From contig JAMCXQ010000005.1 in assembly GCA_023474835.1 (NCBI GenBank), forward strand, positions 1 through 56,672: 56,672 nucleotides of DNA, written 5' to 3'. The translations under genes were made by a program, and so were the position numbers. Shown one piece after another: positions 10,464-27,514 of this stretch. Numbering within the stretch: position 1 is the stretch's first letter; each line of letters begins with the position of its first letter. This stretch comes from Patescibacteria group bacterium. GTDB taxonomy: Bacteria > Patescibacteriota > Minisyncoccia > Minisyncoccales > CG1-02-41-26. The notes below the pieces were generated by a model. That model worked only from the letters and a program-made list of their open reading frames with translations. It was not told where the DNA came from and did not search any database.

Positions 10464-10684
10464 AGAATGGCCTTGTCATCTAATGGGTCAAAGCCAACTG
10501 CTTGGCTTTGACGGGAATCTTAGAAAACTCTCCGAGTTTTCGTTAAGAAATTCCCCGGCACATTATGTTTAAGCCAACTGCTTGGCTTTGACGGCCGATT
10601 TAGGAAATCGTCCCCGATTTCCGTTAAAAATCGGCCAGGCATTCCTTAATTTATTACAATATCAGGTAGTGTTACGGTAAGAAT
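10464..10684 (+). repeat. tRNA-linked structured repeat: 23-nt copy of the tRNA-Glu 5' end followed by two hairpin-pair units
   Basis: 10464-10486 is identical to 10680-10702. HP1 GTCAAAGCCAA-CTGC-TTGGCTTTGAC is at 10487-10512, with a partial copy at 10571-10592. Two-tier hairpins HP2 are at 10513-10556 and 10593-10636, followed by AGGCATTCCTTAA. Confidence 0.75.
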
Positions 10685-10757
10685 GGCCTTGTCATCTAAT
10701 GGTTCAGGATACATGGTTCTCAACCATGTCATACGGGTTCGAATCCCGTCGAGGCCG
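10685..10757 (+). tRNA. tRNA-Glu (anticodon CTC)
   Basis: Acceptor GGCCTTG/CGAGGCC, anticodon arm CATGG-TTCTCAA-CCATG, T arm ACGGG-TTCGAAT-CCCGT. No encoded CCA. Confidence 0.85.
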
Positions 10758-10759
10758 CT

Positions 10760-19893: not shown

Positions 19894-21000
19894 ATGCCAA
19901 ATTTAGTGTTATACCGCAAATATCGTCCTAAATTGTTCAGTGAAGTAATCGGCCAGGAGCATATTATAAAAACCCTTGAGGGCGCCATTTCCGAAGGGAT
20001 TTTTGGCCACGCTTATTTGTTTTCCGGGCCGCGGGGCTGCGGCAAAACAACTGTTGCGCGGCTTTTGGCAAAGGCGCTGAACTGCCAAAAAAGAAAATCG
20101 GGCGAATTTGAGCCTTGCAACCAGTGCGATTCTTGTTTGGAAATTTCAGAAGGCCGGGCCATTGATCTTATTGAAATTGACGCGGCAAGCAACCGGGGCA
20201 TTGACGAAATCAGGGAGTTGAAAGAAGGCATCAGGTTTTTGCCTGCCAAATCAAAATTCAAGGTGTTTATTTTGGACGAGGCGCACCAGCTTTCCAAAGA
20301 CGCCGCCAATGCCCTGCTCAAAACCCTGGAAGAGCCGCCCGGCCACGCCATTTTTATTTTAGCCACCACCGAGGCGAACAAAATGATTCCCACAATTTTG
20401 TCGCGCTGCCAGAAATTCGATTTCAGAAGATTGAAACTGGGGGAGATTGTCGGCCGCCTGGAAAGCATTTTGCAGCAGGAGAAAATAAAATTTGAAAAAG
20501 AGGCGCTGAGCTTAATTGCCGCTCACGCCGCCGGCTCAAGCCGCGACGCGGAGTCATTGCTTGACGAAGCGGTAAGTTTTTTCGGCCAGGACGGCTTGAT
20601 AACAAAAAAAGAAATCGAAGTTTTGCTGGGTTTGGCCGACATTGAAGCGGTTTTTAAGTTTATCGGGTTTTTAAGCCAGAAAAAAGCCAAAGAAGCCGTT
20701 GATTTCATAGCCGATTTGATGGAGCAGGGGATTGACATCAAAGAGTTTCTGCAAACCGTTATTATGTATTTCAGGGAAATTCTGCTTTTGCACATAGACG
20801 TTGGTTTTCAGGACGATTTGCTTTTCGGCTTGTCCGAGGAAGAAAAAGCAAAACTGCGCGATTTGGCAAAAAGTTTTTCCGAACAACAGACCAAGCAGAT
20901 TTTGGAAATTTTCACTGACGCGGAAAACAAAATGAAATACGCCACGATTTTGCAGCTTCCTTTGGAAATGGCGGTGGTTGAAATCTGTATTGAGAATTAA
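19894..21000 (+). CDS. dnaX: DNA polymerase III subunit gamma/tau (short form)
   Basis: LYRKYRPKLFSEVIGQEH, GPRGCGKTT, a Cys cluster (CQKRK..CNQCDSC), ILDEAHQL and SRCQKFDF. Confidence 0.9.
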   Translation: MPNLVLYRKYRPKLFSEVIGQEHIIKTLEGAISEGIFGHAYLFSGPRGCGKTTVARLLAKALNCQKRKSGEFEPCNQCDSCLEISEGRAIDLIEIDAASNRGIDEIRELKEGIRFLPAKSKFKVFILDEAHQLSKDAANALLKTLEEPPGHAIFILATTEANKMIPTILSRCQKFDFRRLKLGEIVGRLESILQQEKIKFEKEALSLIAAHAAGSSRDAESLLDEAVSFFGQDGLITKKEIEVLLGLADIEAVFKFIGFLSQKKAKEAVDFIADLMEQGIDIKEFLQTVIMYFREILLLHIDVGFQDDLLFGLSEEEKAKLRDLAKSFSEQQTKQILEIFTDAENKMKYATILQLPLEMAVVEICIEN

Positions 21001-21042
21001 GTAAAGTAGTTTGGTGCCGGTGTTTCGGATTTATCGTCGAAA

Positions 21043-21163
21043 TTGCCGGGTCGTCTAATGGGTCAAAGCCAACTACTTGGCTTTGACGGGCGATTTAGGA
21101 AATCGCCCCCGATTTCCATTAAAAATCGCCCAGGTCTTCCTTAAAAAGTTAGGCAAATTTATT
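21043..21163 (+). repeat. tRNA-linked structured repeat: 19-nt copy of the tRNA-Gln 5' end followed by a hairpin pair
   Basis: 21043-21061 is identical to 21163-21181. HP1 GTCAAAGCCAA-CTAC-TTGGCTTTGAC is at 21062-21087 and HP2 at 21088-21131, followed by AGGTCTTCCTTAA. Same family as 10464-10684. Confidence 0.75.
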
Positions 21164-21235
21164 TGCCGGGTCGTCTAATGGTAGGACGTCTCCCTTTGGA
21201 GGAGAATATTCTAGGTTCGAATCCTAGCCCGGCAG
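21164..21235 (+). tRNA. tRNA-Gln (anticodon TTG)
   Basis: Acceptor TGCCGGG/CCCGGCA (U1-A72, as in bacterial tRNA-Gln), anticodon arm TCTCC-CTTTGGA-GGAGA, T arm CTAGG-TTCGAAT-CCTAG. Confidence 0.85.
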
Positions 21236-21280
21236 CTGATAGAAAATCTTGTTGCGAAGCAACTTAGATTTTCATCATCC

Positions 21281-21406
21281 CGAACTGAAATTGTTTTAAA
21301 ATATTCAGAACAATTCGAAACCTTAAAACAAGCCAGACACCGTGAGGCTGAAATCAAAAGCTGGCGCCGCGAAAAGAAATTAGCGTTAATGAGTCATGGC
21401 AAATAG
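21281..21406 (+). pseudogene. C-terminal remnant of a GIY-YIG (UPF0213-like) nuclease gene
   Basis: Translates as RTEIVLKYSEQFETLKQARHREAEIKSWRREKKLALMSHGK*, which resembles only the last ~40 aa of small GIY-YIG proteins. There is no start codon or N-terminal GIY-YIG part. Its stop overlaps the MTase start. Confidence 0.45.
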
Positions 21407-22502
21407 TAATCTTACTAACGCGAAACAGGCAAAGAATGATGAGTTTTACACGCAATATGGCGATATTCAAAAAGAGATTGAGGCGTATTTGGAATTTAAC
21501 CCAAATGTATTTCGGGGCAGGGTTGTGTATTGCAACTGCGACGATCCGTTTGAAAGCAATTTTTTTCGCTATTTTACGCTTAATTTCAACAAGCTTGGCT
21601 TAAAACAGCTTATTACCACAAGCTACAAGCCCTCGCCCGTAGCCAACACGCAACTGAAATTGTTTGGCGATGATAAAACCCTTACAAAATCAAAGGGCCG
21701 CCCCAAGATAACCGCCAATAAATTTATTATCAATGAAGTAGCTGATATGGACAGCGATGGCGATTTTGATTTAAAGGACATTGCCAAGCAGTTAAAGGCG
21801 AATAAGCACAATGAATGGACGCCGCTTGAGAAAGACGGCGATTTTAGAAGTTCCGAATGCGTAAAATTATTGAAGCAATCAGACATCGTGGTAACAAATC
21901 CGCCGTTTAGTTTGTTTCGTGAATACGTGAAACAACTTATTGAGTATAATAAAAAGTTTGTGATTATCGGCAACAAAAATTGCGTGACATACAAGGAAAT
22001 TTTCCCATTGATTAAAGACAACAAAATGTGGTCTGGCAAAACAGAATGGTCTGGCGGGTTATGGTTCGTAACCATGGATGATGGCGATGTAGATAAAGTA
22101 GTCAATGGCGTTAATATGAAGAATGTGTCTTCTGTTTGGTTTACCAACATAGACCACGGCAGGCGGCATCAGCCATTGCCGCTTATGACAATGGAAGAAA
22201 ATTTGAAATACAGCAAACACAAAGAAATTCAAGGCAAATCGTCGTATGACAAATATGACAACTACGACGCCATAGAAGTGCCCTTTACTGACGCTATCCC
22301 AAGCGATTATAGCGGCGTAATGGGTGTGCCCATCAGTTTTTTGGATAAATATAGCCCCGAACAATTTGAGATTGTTGGGATGGCAGAGGATAATGGCAAA
22401 GGTTTCTCTGGCGGAATTTGGGACGGCAAAAATCCTCACTGTGTCATAAACGGAGAAAATAAGTTCAAGCGAATTTTTATTAAGCATAAGAAAGTTAAGT
22501 AA
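21396..22502 (+). CDS. N6-adenine DNA methyltransferase, EcoRI-methylase-like family
   Basis: N-terminal KNDEFYTQY, catalytic IVVTNPPFSLF (NPPF), and no adjacent restriction endonuclease recognised. Confidence 0.75.
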   Translation: MANSNLTNAKQAKNDEFYTQYGDIQKEIEAYLEFNPNVFRGRVVYCNCDDPFESNFFRYFTLNFNKLGLKQLITTSYKPSPVANTQLKLFGDDKTLTKSKGRPKITANKFIINEVADMDSDGDFDLKDIAKQLKANKHNEWTPLEKDGDFRSSECVKLLKQSDIVVTNPPFSLFREYVKQLIEYNKKFVIIGNKNCVTYKEIFPLIKDNKMWSGKTEWSGGLWFVTMDDGDVDKVVNGVNMKNVSSVWFTNIDHGRRHQPLPLMTMEENLKYSKHKEIQGKSSYDKYDNYDAIEVPFTDAIPSDYSGVMGVPISFLDKYSPEQFEIVGMAEDNGKGFSGGIWDGKNPHCVINGENKFKRIFIKHKKVK

Positions 22503-22508
22503 AAAAAT

Positions 22509-23018
22509 ATGGCAACAAAAAGACAAGTTTTTTACAGTTTTCATTACAAACCAGATTGTTGGCGAGCTTCCCAAGTTCGAAATATTGGAGCCATTGAAGG
22601 GAATAAACCAGCACCTGATAATGATTGGGAAACTATTATAAGAAGTGGCGATGACGCTATTAAAAAATGGATTAAAGATCAAATGAAATACCGATCATGC
22701 ACGGTTGTGCTTGTCGGCGAAAATACTGCTAATCGCAAATGGATAAATCATGAAATAGTTGAATCATGGAATGCAGGAATGGGAGTTGTTGGAATTTGTA
22801 TTCATGGTTTAAAAAATCAAGATGGATATATTGCAAATCAAGGACATGATCCATTCAATTACATTACATATGGCGATAGCGGTAAAAAATTATCATCAAT
22901 AGTAAAATGTTATAATCCGTCAGGAAGTAATAGTAAAGAAAGATATGATTGGATTTATCAATATATTTCTGATGCTGTTGAAGAAGCTATAAGAATTAGA
23001 AATAATTATTCAAAATAA
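22509..23018 (+). CDS. TIR-like protein (DUF1863/ThsB-type)
   Basis: RQVFYSFHYKPDCWRASQVRN, TVVLVGENTANRKWINHEIVESW and GVVGICIHGLKN, a pattern I associate with ThsB-type TIR-like domains. Confidence 0.7.
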   Translation: MATKRQVFYSFHYKPDCWRASQVRNIGAIEGNKPAPDNDWETIIRSGDDAIKKWIKDQMKYRSCTVVLVGENTANRKWINHEIVESWNAGMGVVGICIHGLKNQDGYIANQGHDPFNYITYGDSGKKLSSIVKCYNPSGSNSKERYDWIYQYISDAVEEAIRIRNNYSK

Positions 23019-23021
23019 AAT

Positions 23022-23459
23022 ATGGAAAATCCAACTGAATACAAACATTGTCCAAATAAAATTGCACACTTGCAGATGATTCAAGGTGTTATTGATCGTA
23101 TGGCCGGAAATTTATTTTATCTAAGGGGGTGGGCGATTACGCTACTTGCTGGGCTTTTTGCCATTTCTACTTCGGAAGCGTTAAGCCTCGCAAAGTGGGT
23201 TCCGTTATTATTTTTTGTTTTATTGATTTTATTTTGGATTTATGACGGATATTTTCTTTCTTTGGAGCGTAAATTTAGAGGTTTATATGATAAGATTAGG
23301 AAATTTCCGGAAGAGGAAATTGATTTTTCAATGAATATTGGAGAATTTAAAACTCATGCTGACAAAACGATGTTTGCTACAATATTATCTCCGACGCTAT
23401 TAGGATTTTACGGCATTCTAAGTTTGGCTATGCTGGTAATTATTAAATTTATTTTATAA
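23022..23459 (+). CDS. small membrane protein (3 predicted helices), candidate effector
   Basis: Hydrophobic helices lie at about aa 36-56, 59-78 and 119-143, with a charged linker SLERKFRGLYDKIRKFPEEEIDF. It is embedded between the two TIR-like genes with 3-nt and 1-nt gaps. Confidence 0.65.
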   Translation: MENPTEYKHCPNKIAHLQMIQGVIDRMAGNLFYLRGWAITLLAGLFAISTSEALSLAKWVPLLFFVLLILFWIYDGYFLSLERKFRGLYDKIRKFPEEEIDFSMNIGEFKTHADKTMFATILSPTLLGFYGILSLAMLVIIKFIL

Positions 23460-23460
23460 A

Positions 23461-24135
23461 ATGGCAAGAAAAATTTTCATTAGCTATAAATACGGAGATA
23501 CCGGCGTTCAACATATACCGCGCTATGGCGAATATGATGCAACGACAGCACGACATTATGTTGATGTTTTGCAAACAAAATTGGATGTGGCAGATCATAT
23601 CAATAAAGGGGAAAACGACGGCGAGGATATGAGTAAGTTTAAGGACGAAACGATAGAATCAAATTTGAGAAATAAAATTTTTGACAGTTCAATTACGATT
23701 GTCCTGATATCTAAAAATATGAAAGACCCCTATCTTGCCGAGGATGACCAGTGGATTCCTTGGGAAATTGCATACTCAATGAAAGAAATTACGCGCAACG
23801 GAAGAACAAGCGGAACAAATGCGATGCTAGCCGTCGTCCTCCCTGATGAGAATGGAAATTATTCGTATGTTGTAAATCACTATCAATGCGTAACTGTTTG
23901 GAATGTCGCATCTTTGTTTAAAATTATAGAAAGCAATATGTTTAATCGAAATCAGAAAAATTTAATTCGCTGCGTAACCTGCGGCGGTATTCATCATACA
24001 GGACAAGACCATTCATATATTCATCCAGTCAAATGGTGCGACTTCATTATTAACATTGATGGATATCTTAATCATGTTATTGGGCATCAAAGTAATCTTG
24101 ATAGTTTTGATATTGTAAAAGAAATAACGCATTAA
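23461..24135 (+). CDS. second TIR-like protein with Cys/His-rich C-terminal part
   Basis: ARKIFISYKYGD, ITIVLISKNMKD, QWIPWEIAYSM and a C-terminal CVTCGGIHHTGQDHSYIHPVKWCDF. Confidence 0.6.
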   Translation: MARKIFISYKYGDTGVQHIPRYGEYDATTARHYVDVLQTKLDVADHINKGENDGEDMSKFKDETIESNLRNKIFDSSITIVLISKNMKDPYLAEDDQWIPWEIAYSMKEITRNGRTSGTNAMLAVVLPDENGNYSYVVNHYQCVTVWNVASLFKIIESNMFNRNQKNLIRCVTCGGIHHTGQDHSYIHPVKWCDFIINIDGYLNHVIGHQSNLDSFDIVKEITH

Positions 24136-24145
24136 TTAAAAAAAT

Positions 24146-24199
24146 ATGAAAGCAATTTTAAAAAGCGACACTACTGTTAAAGATATTTGCGAGGGGTGA
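24146..24199 (+). pseudogene. 17-codon remnant of a DUF262-type gene start
   Basis: MKAILKSDTTVKDICEG* compared with [18 protein letters not shown] at 24930; 42 of 52 nt are identical by hand alignment. It starts 10 nt after the TIR gene stop. Confidence 0.6.
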
Positions 24200-24297
24200 A
24201 AATTATAGGCAATGGCGGGATTAAGTTGGAAAATTGAACTACCGAGGAATCCTCGGTAGTTCAAAAAACTTCGAATAAATTAGTTGAATAATAAGTT

Positions 24298-24699
24298 ATG
24301 GAGAAAGAAAATTATAAAAAAGAGTTTGATAAATGGAATATCCAAAAAAAGATTACTCACAATAGTGAAAATAAAAAAACTTTTCACGAACAAGAAATTT
24401 GGTTTATTAAAATTGGCGAGAATATTGGTTTTGAACAAGACGGAAAGGGCGAGGATTTTTTAAGGCCAGTTATTGTTTACAAAAAATTTTCAAAAAATGT
24501 TTTTTTGGGCATACCTTTAACAAAAGCAATAAAAGAAAATAAGTTTTATAAGGTATTTGATTTTCATGGAGAAAAAAGCAATGCAATTCTGTCGCAAATA
24601 AGACTTTTTGATTCAAAGAGATTAAAATATAAAATTGGAAAAATGAGTTCTGTTGATTTTGCTTCTGTAAAAGAAAAACTCATCCAGTTGATTAGATGA
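24298..24699 (+). CDS. MazF/PemK-like toxin, no adjacent antitoxin gene seen
   Basis: EIWFIKIGENIGFEQDGKGEDFLRPVIVYKKF..FLGIPLTKAIKE..AILSQIRLFDSKRL fits the PemK/MazF family pattern. Confidence 0.65.
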   Translation: MEKENYKKEFDKWNIQKKITHNSENKKTFHEQEIWFIKIGENIGFEQDGKGEDFLRPVIVYKKFSKNVFLGIPLTKAIKENKFYKVFDFHGEKSNAILSQIRLFDSKRLKYKIGKMSSVDFASVKEKLIQLIR

Positions 24700-24786
24700 G
24701 TTTTCCCTGTTTTTACTCCCCATAAGGGGAGAGAGTCCTAATGGACATTTATATTGTAATATTACCATATTTTAAAGTTAAAAGTC

Positions 24787-24907
24787 AATAGTAGGACTTA
24801 CGCGTTTGGGCATTTTTTCTCAAAAATCGCGTGAAATATGGCCTTATTTCGTGGCCTCATTGCACAAAAAATGGCTAAAACTGGCCAAACGCGTAAGTCC
24901 TAAATAG
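24787..24907. mobile_element. MITE-like element: 18-bp perfect terminal inverted repeats with 5-bp AATAG flanking duplication
   Basis: TAGGACTTACGCGTTTGG (24792-24809) and CCAAACGCGTAAGTCCTA (24885-24902) enclose a 75-nt non-coding core. AATAG occurs at 24787-24791 and again at 24903-24907. Confidence 0.55.
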
Positions 24908-24929
24908 TTTAAAAAAGTGAAAAAACAAT

Positions 24930-26099
24930 ATGAAAACGATTTTAAAAACCAATATTACCGTTAGAGAAATTTGCGACGGGTTTGTTTATAACGAGCTTGA
25001 GGGCAAAGGCTTGTTTGGCTTGTCTGGCAAATTGACTATTCAGCCGGAATATCAACGCAACTATATCTATGCTTCCGATGGGGGCAAAAAAGAAATTGCT
25101 GTTATTGGCTCAATTCTTAAGGGCTATCCAATTGGCTTAATTTATTTTAATAAGGTTTCTGAAAATAACCTGGAAGTTTTAGACGGGCAACAACGGATTA
25201 CCAGCTTAGGGCGGTTTATAACCGATAAATTTGCCATTAAAGATGCAAACAATATGGAGCAATATTTTAATGGTATGGCGAAAGACAAACAAGCCAAAAT
25301 TTTGGAAACCAAACTTTTGATTTACGAATGCGAAGGCACGGAAAGCGAGATAAAAGAATGGTTTAAAACGATTAATATTGCCGGCGTGCCGCTTAATAAT
25401 CAGGAATTGCTTAATGCTGTTTATTCTGGGCCGTTTGTAACGCTCGGCAAAGAAGAGTTTAGCAACAGCCAAAACGCCAATATCCAGAAATGGAGCGCCT
25501 ATATATCGGGCAGCGCTAACCGGCAGGACTTTTTGGAACGCGCTTTGGATTGGGTAAGCAAAGGAAATATCGGGGACTATATGAGCCACCATCGTTTTGA
25601 TAAAAATATCACTGAGCTCAAAAAATATTTCAACAGCGTGATTGATTGGGTTTCTGCTATATTTATTGATGTGGAAAGCGAGATGCGCGGGCTGGAATGG
25701 GGCAGATTATACGAACAGTATCATAAGAAAGCGTATGACCCCGTCAAAGTCTCAGCCGAAGTGCAAAAGCTTTACGCTGATCCGTATGTAAAAAATCGCA
25801 GGGGGATTTTTGAGTATATTCTCGGCGGTTCCGTTGACACGAAATTGCTTGATGTTAGAGTTTTTGACGAAGCAACCAAGAAAGCTGTTTATACAACGCA
25901 AACTGCTGCGGCCGGAAAGAAAGAAAAGTCAAACTGCCCGCATTGCGCCATTGGGCACGACGCCAACAAGAGCAAAATTTGGAGTTTTGGTGAAATGGAC
26001 GCCGATCACGTAGCGGCCTGGAGCAAGGGAGGCGCAACTACAGCTAAGAATTGTCAGATGCTTTGCAAGACACATAATCGAGCGAAAGGTAATCGATAA
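24930..26099 (+). CDS. DUF262 (ParB/GmrSD-N-like) plus HNH nuclease fusion protein
   Basis: [16 protein letters not shown] (the DGQQR motif of DUF262). C-terminal [31 protein letters not shown] is an HNH motif. Confidence 0.75.
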
Positions 26100-26250
26100 T
26101 TTTATCTATGCAGGGTTACCTAATATGCCCGGATCGATTATTGAGCCCGAGCTTCCAAAAAAGACGAAAAAAGATTAGAATCGATATAATCTCGAGTTAA
26201 TTGTTAGGGGTTCGGGGTATAAATATACCCGCATTGTTGCTGAAGTATAT

Positions 26251-26277
26251 TTCTAGCATTTACCAACTCTCGCAGCA
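26251..26277 (+). repeat. 27-nt direct repeat, left copy (TTCTAGCATTTACCAACTCTCGCAGCA)
   Basis: Matches 27488-27514 at 24 of 27 positions. Each copy is followed by a short hairpin using CAACTC/GAGTTG. Confidence 0.6.
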
Positions 26278-26379
26278 GAGTTTGCAAGAGTTGACAGAGA
26301 ATAGAAGGGAAAACTGACAAAAGTTTACAAGTTATCTTTGTGGGTCAACTAATAATTAATTTTAATAAATTTAATCAAT

Positions 26380-26742
26380 ATGGTATCTCCTCAACTTTGG
26401 TTAGAAATATTATCTCTTACAAAAGCTCTTTTTGATGCTATTAAGTCGGGCGCAGATCTTCTTGCGAGCTATCAGAAGCATAAACAAGAAAAAGAAACAG
26501 TTCAGGAGTCTCAGAGGGTAAGCGAAGTATTTTCTACCTACTCAGAAAATGAAGTAAAAAAGATTCTTTTACGATTAGAACAATGTCGGGATCGATTTAT
26601 TAAACAAGGTGGTGGTACGGATAGAGCGTCCTGTTTATGTAGTATATTGAATGAGGTTAAGATTGGTAATGGAGGTCAGCTTCCTATTATAGATGATTGG
26701 GCTAATATTTATCGTCAACTAGGGTGTGGTACTCATCAGTAA
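26380..26742 (+). CDS. hypothetical protein (120 aa)
   Basis: AT-rich ORF in the island; no motif recognised. Confidence 0.45.
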   Translation: MVSPQLWLEILSLTKALFDAIKSGADLLASYQKHKQEKETVQESQRVSEVFSTYSENEVKKILLRLEQCRDRFIKQGGGTDRASCLCSILNEVKIGNGGQLPIIDDWANIYRQLGCGTHQ

Positions 26743-26810
26743 TATTGATTCTAATCGAGACTAATGTTGCTAGAGGAGTTAAAAATAAACATAAATTTTT
26801 TTATAGAAAC

Positions 26811-27458
26811 ATGCAAAGTTTATTAGATACAAATCTAGAAAGAATTAAATCAGAAATACAACAAAATTCTTGGAATAATAAAGATATAGTTTCTTTAATG
26901 AATTTTTTTAGGCATATTTTAGAGTCAAGCAAATCTCAAGGAAAATATAAATATATTAATCTCTATTCTAATTGGGTATTTCACACGGAGATAACTAAAA
27001 ATTCAGTAGCAATGGATATTCTGGATATTTTGACTGATTCAATGATCAAACATAACGTTAATCCTAAAGATGGAAAGTGGGTTAACGATGCGATTATTGA
27101 AGGACTTTCACTTCATCTATTAAGAGAAGAAATTTTGTCATTCTCAAAAGAATTTAATCTTGGTACAGATGTTAACATTTACGAATTTAATAATTGGAAA
27201 AATTTTGCAGTGTCCTTAATAAAGGAATTATTAAATAAACCCTTGAAAGTCATTCAAAATAAGACGATATATAATAACCTTATCGATAAAGCAAATAAAT
27301 CAGGGTATATCGGCAATGCAGTATTAGCAATATATTTTTGGGTAGATAATAATGGGATTGTCCATTGGAAAATCGATACACCAGAAAGTTTAAGAAAGGG
27401 CGTTTCAGTAATTGGCCCGATGAGTATAATTTCTCAGCAGATGATCGATGGTTGTTAA
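26811..27458 (+). CDS. hypothetical protein (about 216 aa)
   Basis: ATG at 26811. The track's GTG at 26724 would overlap the upstream gene. No motif recognised. Confidence 0.45.
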   Translation: MQSLLDTNLERIKSEIQQNSWNNKDIVSLMNFFRHILESSKSQGKYKYINLYSNWVFHTEITKNSVAMDILDILTDSMIKHNVNPKDGKWVNDAIIEGLSLHLLREEILSFSKEFNLGTDVNIYEFNNWKNFAVSLIKELLNKPLKVIQNKTIYNNLIDKANKSGYIGNAVLAIYFWVDNNGIVHWKIDTPESLRKGVSVIGPMSIISQQMIDGC

Positions 27459-27487
27459 GCGGAAATTGAAGAGTTTGCCATTAAAAT

Positions 27488-27514
27488 TCTTCTAACATTT
27501 ACCAACTCTCGTAA
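27488..27514 (+). repeat. 27-nt direct repeat, right copy (TTCTAACATTTACCAACTCTCGTAACA)
   Basis: See 26251-26277. Confidence 0.6.

Follow-up and report, generated by a model that had tools for sequence, protein, structure and literature searches.

A relic nuclease gene start between defence cargoes in a probable split methylase-nuclease operon of a Patescibacteria genome

We analysed a 56,672-nucleotide stretch of DNA (contig JAMCXQ010000005.1, positions 1 to 56,672, of assembly GCA_023474835.1, a Patescibacteria group bacterium), called the window here, and in it a 17-codon open reading frame (ORF) that follows a set of TIR-domain genes. This ORF resembles the start of an intact DUF262-HNH nuclease gene (R) that lies further downstream. 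We consider it probable that the locus is a two-gene operon, consisting of an EcoRI-family methylase gene (M) and R, that was split by defence cargo at the M-R junction. We call the relic R start the stub; it speaks for replacement at a cargo hotspot and gives no evidence that the TIR system has a nuclease arm. The features concerned are the following.

21396 to 22502, plus strand: EcoRI-family N6-adenine DNA methyltransferase, M (Pfam EcoRI_methylase, E-value 1e-119)
24138 to 24199, plus strand: relic copy of the M-R junction, made up of 8 nt of upstream context, R codons 1-17 and TGA (alignment, repeat and profile searches)
24922 to 26099, plus strand: intact R, the DUF262(GmrSD_N)-HNH nuclease gene (ORF 24930-26099), preceded by 8 nt of junction-like context (Pfam, PADLOC)

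The relic gene start and the intact nuclease gene

Direct reading placed the TAA stop codon of the second TIR gene (TIR-2) at positions 24133-24135. An ATG follows 10 nt later at 24146 and opens an ORF of 17 codons (MKAILKSDTTVKDICEG; 24146-24199), which closes with TGA at 24197-24199. Ungapped alignment of this ORF to the start of R (24930 onward) gave 42 identities in 52 nt, or 41 in 51. Both the ORF and the match had been described in a first-pass annotation of this DNA, and were reproduced here. The annotation had named chance similarity as one of the findings that would refute it. When the 51-mer was scanned along both strands of the whole window, a mean of 13.3 identities was obtained (standard deviation 3.3), and the next-best position reached 28/51. 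A repeat search lengthened the match to 60 nt (24138-24197 against 24922-24981; 49/60 identical, 82%), taking in the 8 nt upstream of each ATG. In addition, a profile made from the 5' ends of 81 family members found only two matches in the 647-kb genome, the resident R and the stub, with E-values of 6e-17 and 3e-10, respectively. The similarity breaks off abruptly past the GGG(T) of codon 17, the longest exact core common to the two copies is at most 10 nt, and the 111 nt that follow the stub are single copy in the genome. By these comparisons, the stub is a genuine leftover from the start of a DUF262-HNH gene and occupies an operonic position behind TIR-2. It marks the border between a first cargo, the TIR genes, and a second, composed of a MazF-like gene and an element resembling a miniature inverted-repeat transposable element (MITE). 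The annotation had placed the latter two between both copies, and our coordinates agree.

The stub and resident R peptides differ at 7 amino acids, all of them conservative, and the 3' half of the stub, VKDICEG, is the family consensus, while the resident R has VREICDG at the same place. This is the pattern expected of a once-functional allele, and not of a decayed duplicate. Compared over 60 nt with 81 other R starts of the family, the stub showed a mean of 44.8 identities and a maximum of 53, and six were closer to it than the resident R (49/60). These identities mark the stub as an ordinary allele of the family, not one recently copied from the resident R. Since it is no closer to the resident R than to other family members, it probably derives from a displaced R allele. 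The stub itself is most likely non-functional, and its 60-nt identity with the live R could permit recombination that deletes the MazF cassette.

The R protein (389 amino acids) matched Pfam GmrSD_N at residues 36-165 (E-value 4.8e-21), with an LDGQQR motif that was invariant in 69 R homologues. Its C-terminus matched HNH (PF01844, E-value 3.8e-6) and also HNH_5, and there was no Pfam match to DUF1524 in the protein, all as the annotation had read it. R also matched the PADLOC model REase_II (PDLC03418, E-value 3.5e-82) at full length, over profile positions 4-371 of 372. The homologues number more than 8000 proteins, and the top 120, at 86-91% identity, are nearly all 389 amino acids long. 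The annotation had proposed profile and structure searches with this protein. Although the former assigned its Pfam and PADLOC domains, searches of the PDB with the single sequence and with a profile gave only spurious triosephosphate isomerase matches, and NCBIfam gave no match for any of eight proteins. An AlphaFold2 model of R, built on a shallow 69-sequence alignment, was poor (predicted local distance difference test score, 61.7), and Foldseek with this model gave weak matches, to ParB (E-value 4e-3) and BrxU (E-value 1.6e-2). Structural statements on R are limited here to the Pfam domains, the model being too poor for more.

The methylase partner and the cargo between M and R

When species-representative genomes were scanned for R, at least 589 loci were obtained, of which the best 80 (78-88% identity) were taken and combined with two fetched earlier, giving 82 related loci. 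The best 80 came from Patescibacteria, Omnitrophota, Gamma- and Deltaproteobacteria, Bacteroidota, Chloroflexota, Firmicutes, Planctomycetota, Verrucomicrobiota, Armatimonadota and DPANN archaea. A tblastn search of these loci with the window proteins placed an M homologue upstream of R in 78 of the 82. When each M ORF was extended to its stop, M and R were found to be translationally coupled in 60 of these 78 loci, through the canonical ...AAGAAAAAATAAtATGAAAAC (TAAtATG) or an ATGA overlap; measured from the end of the M stop codon, R begins 1 nt downstream or 4 nt upstream in most relatives. The remaining 18 consisted of 17 loci with an insert of 0.35-3.1 kb at the M-R junction and one degenerate locus. 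In the window, the gap between M and R is 2,427 bp. The pairing was kept in IMG/VR contigs, even at an R identity of 37-39%, was seen in Enterococcus faecium megaplasmids and a 9-kb Moraxella plasmid, and held in a fresh Patescibacteria sample, where R was present in 33 of 401 genomes. Less similar R copies were found on plasmids (62-69%) and in a phage (79%). In two loci (L026, L027), R lies 1 nt behind an EcoRI-family methylase that is itself preceded by a small helix-turn-helix (HTH) gene. M of the window matched PADLOC MTase_II (PDLC03297, E-value 2e-100). Because of the pairing in 78/82 loci, in phage and on plasmids, and of the MTase_II and REase_II scores, we conclude from gene context that R belongs with the EcoRI-family M, and not with the TIR genes. 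The annotation had called a DUF262 nuclease beside a methyltransferase odd, whereas it is the rule in this subfamily, even at 38% identity. No description of this M and DUF262-HNH pair was found in the literature searched.

Some of the M-R pairs come from cultured organisms. One is a moron beside the tape-measure gene of the Flavobacterium phage vB_FspS_laban6-1 (L243, 10219-12581), and others lie on plasmids, E. faecium pBN83-1 (L242) and Moraxella osloensis pSKB0120-6 (L244). These copies are accessible experimental material.

The 17 inserts at the M-R junction carried OLD-like AAA_15/TOPRIM ATPases, PIN_8, a ParB-like protein with a Dam methylase, Bro-N, AntA and RhuM, and further DUF2130, Schlafen/HATPase_c_4, T5orf172, GIY-YIG and several unknown proteins. 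In all, cargo was present in 17 of 78 genome loci, in 5 viral loci and in 6 of 19 loci of the phylum sample, with more than 10 protein families represented. This is the gene set typical of the inside of type I restriction-modification (R-M) operons. The cargo genes are mostly coupled to their neighbours. Several begin exactly at a displaced R start (TAAtATGAAA...), and several end in an M-like ...ATTAAGAAAAAATAAT immediately ahead of the R ATG, which indicates that short pieces of the junction were duplicated on both sides of the cargo. By the variety of unrelated genes between two conserved flanks, the M-R locus is an embedded-cargo hotspot, and by its gene content the window is a further such locus with two stacked cargoes, TIR-TM-TIR and the MazF-like gene with the MITE, where TM denotes a small membrane protein. 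These cargo features are listed below.

22509 to 23018, plus strand: cargo 1a, ThsB-like TIR protein, TIR-1 (Pfam ThsB_TIR, E-value 2.4e-27; PADLOC ThsB, 3e-66, and PDC-M50B, 2e-63)
23022 to 23459, plus strand: cargo 1b, TM, presumed effector of the TIR system (PADLOC PDC-M50A, E-value 1.5e-40)
23461 to 24135, plus strand: cargo 1c, second ThsB-like TIR protein, TIR-2 (PADLOC ThsB PDLC00428, E-value 6.7e-76)
24276 to 24766, plus strand: cargo 2, MazF/PemK-like gene (ORF 24298-24699) with conserved flanks (Pfam PemK_toxin, E-value 1.4e-7, a weak match)
24787 to 24907, no strand: MITE-like element, an inverted repeat at 24792-24902 with terminal inverted repeats of 18-26 nt and AATAG on both sides (direct reading, repeat search)

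TM travels with TIR-2 in other genomes, and the homology of the window DNA to such pairs stops at 24122. In one genome (G088) the gene order is TM-TIR2-TIR1, with TIR-1 after TIR-2 and not before TM. The closest TM and TIR-2 pairs, at 82-88% identity, lie behind other methylases, near HNH_2 or Bro-N genes, or next to dnaJ or rpsT. In six contexts, which were also searched with the stub profile, the closest homologues had neither a DUF262 gene nor a stub downstream. Further, homologues of the TIR, TM or MazF-like genes were absent from the other approximately 140 related R loci. The first-pass annotation had linked a nuclease arm to the TIR module, and this link was not borne out. Its proposal that a DUF262 gene was once the fifth gene of the methyltransferase-TIR operon, later truncated or replaced, stands in part: the position and divergence of the stub fit a replaced allele, but the TIR genes are not the partner of R.

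The limits of the MazF cassette, approximately 24276-24766, were set by DNA homology to copies elsewhere. No antitoxin-sized ORF was found beside the MazF-like gene (24200-24297 and 24700-24929), so that it lacks the pairing of a MazEF system, and its homologues elsewhere are likewise solo. A homologue with 76% identity follows dnaX in relatives that are syntenic with the window. Since TM and TIR-2 occur without DUF262, and the MazF homologue occurs in a type I R-M operon or near dnaX, the TIR and MazF cargoes are, by their distribution, each independently mobile.

Origin of the relic start

Profile searches detected extra R starts in four further loci, L050, L066, L089 (of which L111 is a metagenome copy) and L094, each with a different cargo unit on either side. 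Similarity stops after the GGG of codon 17 in the window, L050, L066 and L089/L111, and nAAAAATTA(TG) comes next. The L094 stub ends at codon 11, after which a GIY-YIG gene begins. Stubs were thus present in about 5 of about 140 loci, and in about 5 of about 30 cargo loci. The 39 viral and 19 Patescibacteria loci that were sampled additionally gave more cargo and no new stubs. The pattern ATTTGCGNNGGGN{1,3}AAAATTA, with which metagenomes were scanned for the stub junction, proved too loose and gave 120 stretches with one real stub, that of L111. Random breakage would not be expected to give the same end point in three or more lineages. The shared end may reflect one old event, followed by swapping of cargo through homologous exchange with M and the stub or R as flanks; alternatively, codon 17 may be a preferred recombination site, or deletion may have occurred between GCGAAGGG microhomology at both ends of R.

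The L050 (1446-1526) and L089 (5041-5123; also L111) stubs carry a common, partly palindromic insertion of 21-23 nt (CCCTGCCTCGTTGGCAGGCAGG-like) after codon 11. Because of this insertion, the two stubs are, by alignment, related by descent, though the cargo on both sides differs. In L094 (19-660), whose stub ends at this same point, the R 5' end is interrupted by a gene for a 143-amino acid GIY-YIG protein, and a 38-nt stretch spanning R positions -7 to +31 is duplicated (36/38 identical to the full copy). This arrangement seems to be a recent case of the kind of event that is found in the window.

We infer an order of events and a replacement of alleles as follows. A TIR-TM-TIR cassette (Thoeris-like/PDC-M50) would have entered the junction of the two-gene operon, giving M-TIR1-TM-TIR2-R; in this sense the fifth gene proposed by the annotation is correct. 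Recombination would then have introduced a segment that carried the MazF-like cassette together with another R allele, one that had a junction-derived start of its own, and the old R would have been replaced from codon 18 onward, leaving the 17-codon stub. The MITE would have landed last, at AATAG, 22 nt upstream of the R start. In functional terms, M is predicted to methylate adenine and so mark host DNA, with the ParB-like, NTP-binding DUF262 domain of R acting as a putative sensor or switch and the HNH domain as the nuclease against unmarked DNA; the activity of R would then be blocked by methylation. An R-M function is supported by the near-obligate coupled pairing, the matches to REBASE-derived models, the occasional controller-like HTH gene and the carriage by phage and plasmids. 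The TIR and MazF cargoes would be independent defence or addiction modules that are co-inherited with a highly mobile R-M unit, and the TIR genes may additionally gain co-transcription with it.

Several points weigh against this history or against the proposed function. One genome does not suffice to read off the order of events, and contiguity across the stub is taken from a single metagenome-assembled genome (MAG). The annotation had looked to related contigs for an uninterrupted TIR-DUF262 junction, and none was found in relatives or in the six TIR-2 homologue contexts, which leaves the position of the stub as the sole trace of an M-TIR-R intermediate. Moreover, three independent stub lineages stop at codon 17 and continue with a similar AAAAATTA(TG), which random illegitimate recombination does not predict. 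As for function, an HTH gene resembling that of a controller (C) protein was present upstream in only about 8 of 64 loci. The mean pairwise identity was 81% for R and 62% for M, a contrast inflated by the choice of loci on R identity, and the distance matrices were weakly correlated (r = 0.38; 69 loci with complete M and R, L026-L106). That R is far more conserved than M, together with this weak correlation, suggests that M and R alleles were reshuffled at the junction. In at least two loci (L032, 3417-5623; L267, 5127-7173), R had no EcoRI-family methylase within 4-6 kb upstream and was preceded by RhuM or Bro-N cargo; R may be tolerated without M there, or another methylase may substitute. 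Finally, the DUF262 nucleases characterised so far are modification-dependent (GmrSD, BrxU and TgvAB) or sense phosphorothioate (SspE) (PMC4619093, PMC12707154, PMC11411939).

The shared end point could also be explained by site-specific capture, with the first 52 nt or so of R, and about 10 nt of the M end, as the attachment site of cassettes that carry it; integration would leave the left copy as the stub and restore an intact R on the right, as for integron cassettes or tRNA-targeting islands. The stubs of the window, L050, L066 and L089/L111 that all end at codon 17, the junction context included upstream of the ATG, the cargo that differs on both sides of the stub in every locus, and tRNA genes of the same genome in which a hairpin element lies between a 5' stub and an intact copy are all in keeping with capture. 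We nevertheless regard it as unlikely, since no recombinase was found in or next to the window island (21000-27500) or in the inspected cargo regions of other loci, the two copies have no exact core above 10 nt, about 25 of 30 cargo loci are without a stub, and L094 breaks at codon 11 instead of 17. In addition, AAATTATG is a generic start context in these AT-rich genomes, and the insertion common to L050 and L089 means that at least those two stubs were inherited and not re-created. It is equally doubtful that the first 17 codons of R and the last bases of M form a recombination site at which cassettes stack, each capture regenerating an intact R; if true, this would amount to an integron-like cassette platform inside a highly mobile R-M unit common to many bacterial phyla. 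A fixed end point at codon 17 would require no recombinase if the stub were what was left of the first of two tandem R genes after deletion between the 8-nt GCGAAGGG, which in R occurs at codons 15-17 (C-E-G) and at about codons 384-387 (R-A-K-G). Many family members have this microhomology at both ends of R, and the sequence after the L089 stub vaguely resembles the 3' flank of its own R. However, none of the four stubs retains the remnant of the last codons (AAT CGn TAA) that this deletion predicts, the 3' flanks of R vary from locus to locus and fail to match what follows the stub in the window, L050 or L066, and no locus with two full tandem R genes was seen among the genome and viral loci surveyed, which makes such a deletion distinctly improbable.

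That the nuclease is or was a functional arm of the methyltransferase-TIR system, for example an effector downstream of TIR signalling, is suggested by the operonic position of the stub 10 nt behind TIR-2 and by the location of these defence genes on one strand. The survey of gene contexts has already largely refuted it, with TIR genes in none of about 140 other R loci, no downstream DUF262 gene or stub at the closest TM and TIR-2 pairs, and the nuclease coupled to the methyltransferase instead. The recognised partner of such TIR proteins is the TM protein (PADLOC PDC-M50A/B; type V Thoeris, bioRxiv 10.64898/2025.12.03.692087), and we consider an arm of this kind highly improbable. Selection of the stub as an upstream mini-ORF, a leader for translational coupling of the cargo behind it, is scarcely credible. 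The stub ORF is intact in the window, that of L050 runs to an ATGA overlap with the next gene, and those of L066 and L089 stop 5-9 nt before the next ATG; but the next gene in the window lies 98 nt further, behind a perfect hairpin, the L089 stub is frameshifted, the L066 stub has no ATG, and ORFs so short remain open by chance. The source is a MAG contig, which would leave room for an assembly artefact. Given the scan and profile values above, the analogous stubs in independent assemblies and the lack of a common k-mer long enough to mislead an assembler, artefact or chance similarity is a vanishingly small possibility. Insertion of cargo at the M-R junction, followed by replacement of the R allele, remains the preferred explanation, and the recurrence of codon 17 and the M and DUF262-HNH pair merit further study.

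Comparison with known systems and neighbouring elements

Defence genes embedded in restriction operons are already known, prrC in EcoprrI being an example, and such systems have so far been described mostly for type I R-M, BREX and Hma clusters. RloF and TgvAB sit between hsd genes of type I R-M systems, and Hma-embedded candidates of Payne et al. are cited in the same source (PMC11411939). The M-R locus is similar to the type I operons in that unrelated defence or toxin genes lie between conserved restriction genes, on the same strand and often translationally coupled, with RhuM, Bro-N, OLD, PIN, DUF2130, Schlafen, GIY-YIG and MazF among the cargo. Unlike them, the host is a minimal two-gene pair with a single coupled junction and, in some loci, relic R starts at the cargo borders, and in these features it is a variant of the known kind of embedding. 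The coupled junction of a two-gene R-M operon can thus be a landing pad for defence genes, with the relic starts as footprints. The repeats also recall integron arrays and tRNA islands, in which direct repeats of the end of a target gene flank an insert, the intact gene is kept and cargo is stacked; here, in contrast, no integrase, attC-like element or exact core was found, the repeats are 82% identical and most cargo loci are stub-free.

Like GmrSD, BrxU and SspE, R has a DUF262 domain with DGQQR at the N-terminus and a His-Me finger nuclease at the C-terminus. It differs in that its C-terminus is a canonical HNH (PF01844) and not DUF1524, and at 389 amino acids it is much shorter than BrxU (a chain of 580). 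Unlike modification-dependent type IV enzymes, it is nearly always coupled to its own N6-methyladenine methyltransferase, and SspE offers a precedent for a DUF262 nuclease that acts with a host modification system (PMC12707154). Adjacent, co-oriented methyltransferase and nuclease genes with full-length PADLOC MTase_II and REase_II matches, an occasional C-protein-like HTH gene upstream, and wide horizontal spread including plasmids and phage are as in Type II R-M systems; the greater conservation of R than of M, in a sample selected on R, is the reverse of the usual pattern. If methylation blocks R, a GmrSD-type sensor domain would have been recruited into a classical R-M system. An uncharacterised, extremely widespread and mobile M and DUF262-HNH pair is brought out by this analysis, and the annotation logic of the island is corrected, since the methylase pairs with a nuclease 2.4 kb away and not with the adjoining TIR genes. 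The nearest published description of the TIR-TM-TIR cargo is type V Thoeris (bioRxiv 10.64898/2025.12.03.692087). TIR proteins of the ThsB type are present by Pfam and PADLOC, and TM matches PDC-M50A and had no Pfam match at an E-value of 0.01 or below, DUF2270/ThsF included.

A hairpin lies in the interval between the stub and the MazF cassette.

24234 to 24264, no strand: perfect 15-bp hairpin (TTGAACTACCGAGGA/TCCTCGGTAGTTCAA; repeat search, 100% complementary)

It has no other copy in the genome and no T-run on the plus strand; a terminator of the M-TIR transcript and a cassette end are candidate roles only. A second copy of the MITE-like element, with 81% identity, is present on contig C33 of the same genome. 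At both tRNA genes of the window (21043-21236 and 10464-10758), the first 19 nt or so of the gene are copied upstream and followed by a hairpin-rich element. This layout of stub, insert and intact gene is formally like that of the R stub, and no similarity was found between the post-stub sequence and the hairpin elements behind the tRNA 5' stubs of this genome.

The type I R-M operon that harbours a MazF homologue (L234, 2091-8204; 81% identity) has it 2 nt after hsdM and before hsdS, and contains a second PemK-like gene before hsdR. The same contig also carries the TspO gene that is found downstream in the window. Between tRNA-Gln and the M ATG of the window (21269-21391) lies the C-terminal half (amino acids 39-79, 56% identity) of a small GIY-YIG gene. 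An intact GIY-YIG gene follows the MazF-like gene behind dnaX in the syntenic relatives L235 and L237, and this placement suggests that pieces of one MazF-GIY-YIG unit now flank the M-TIR block.

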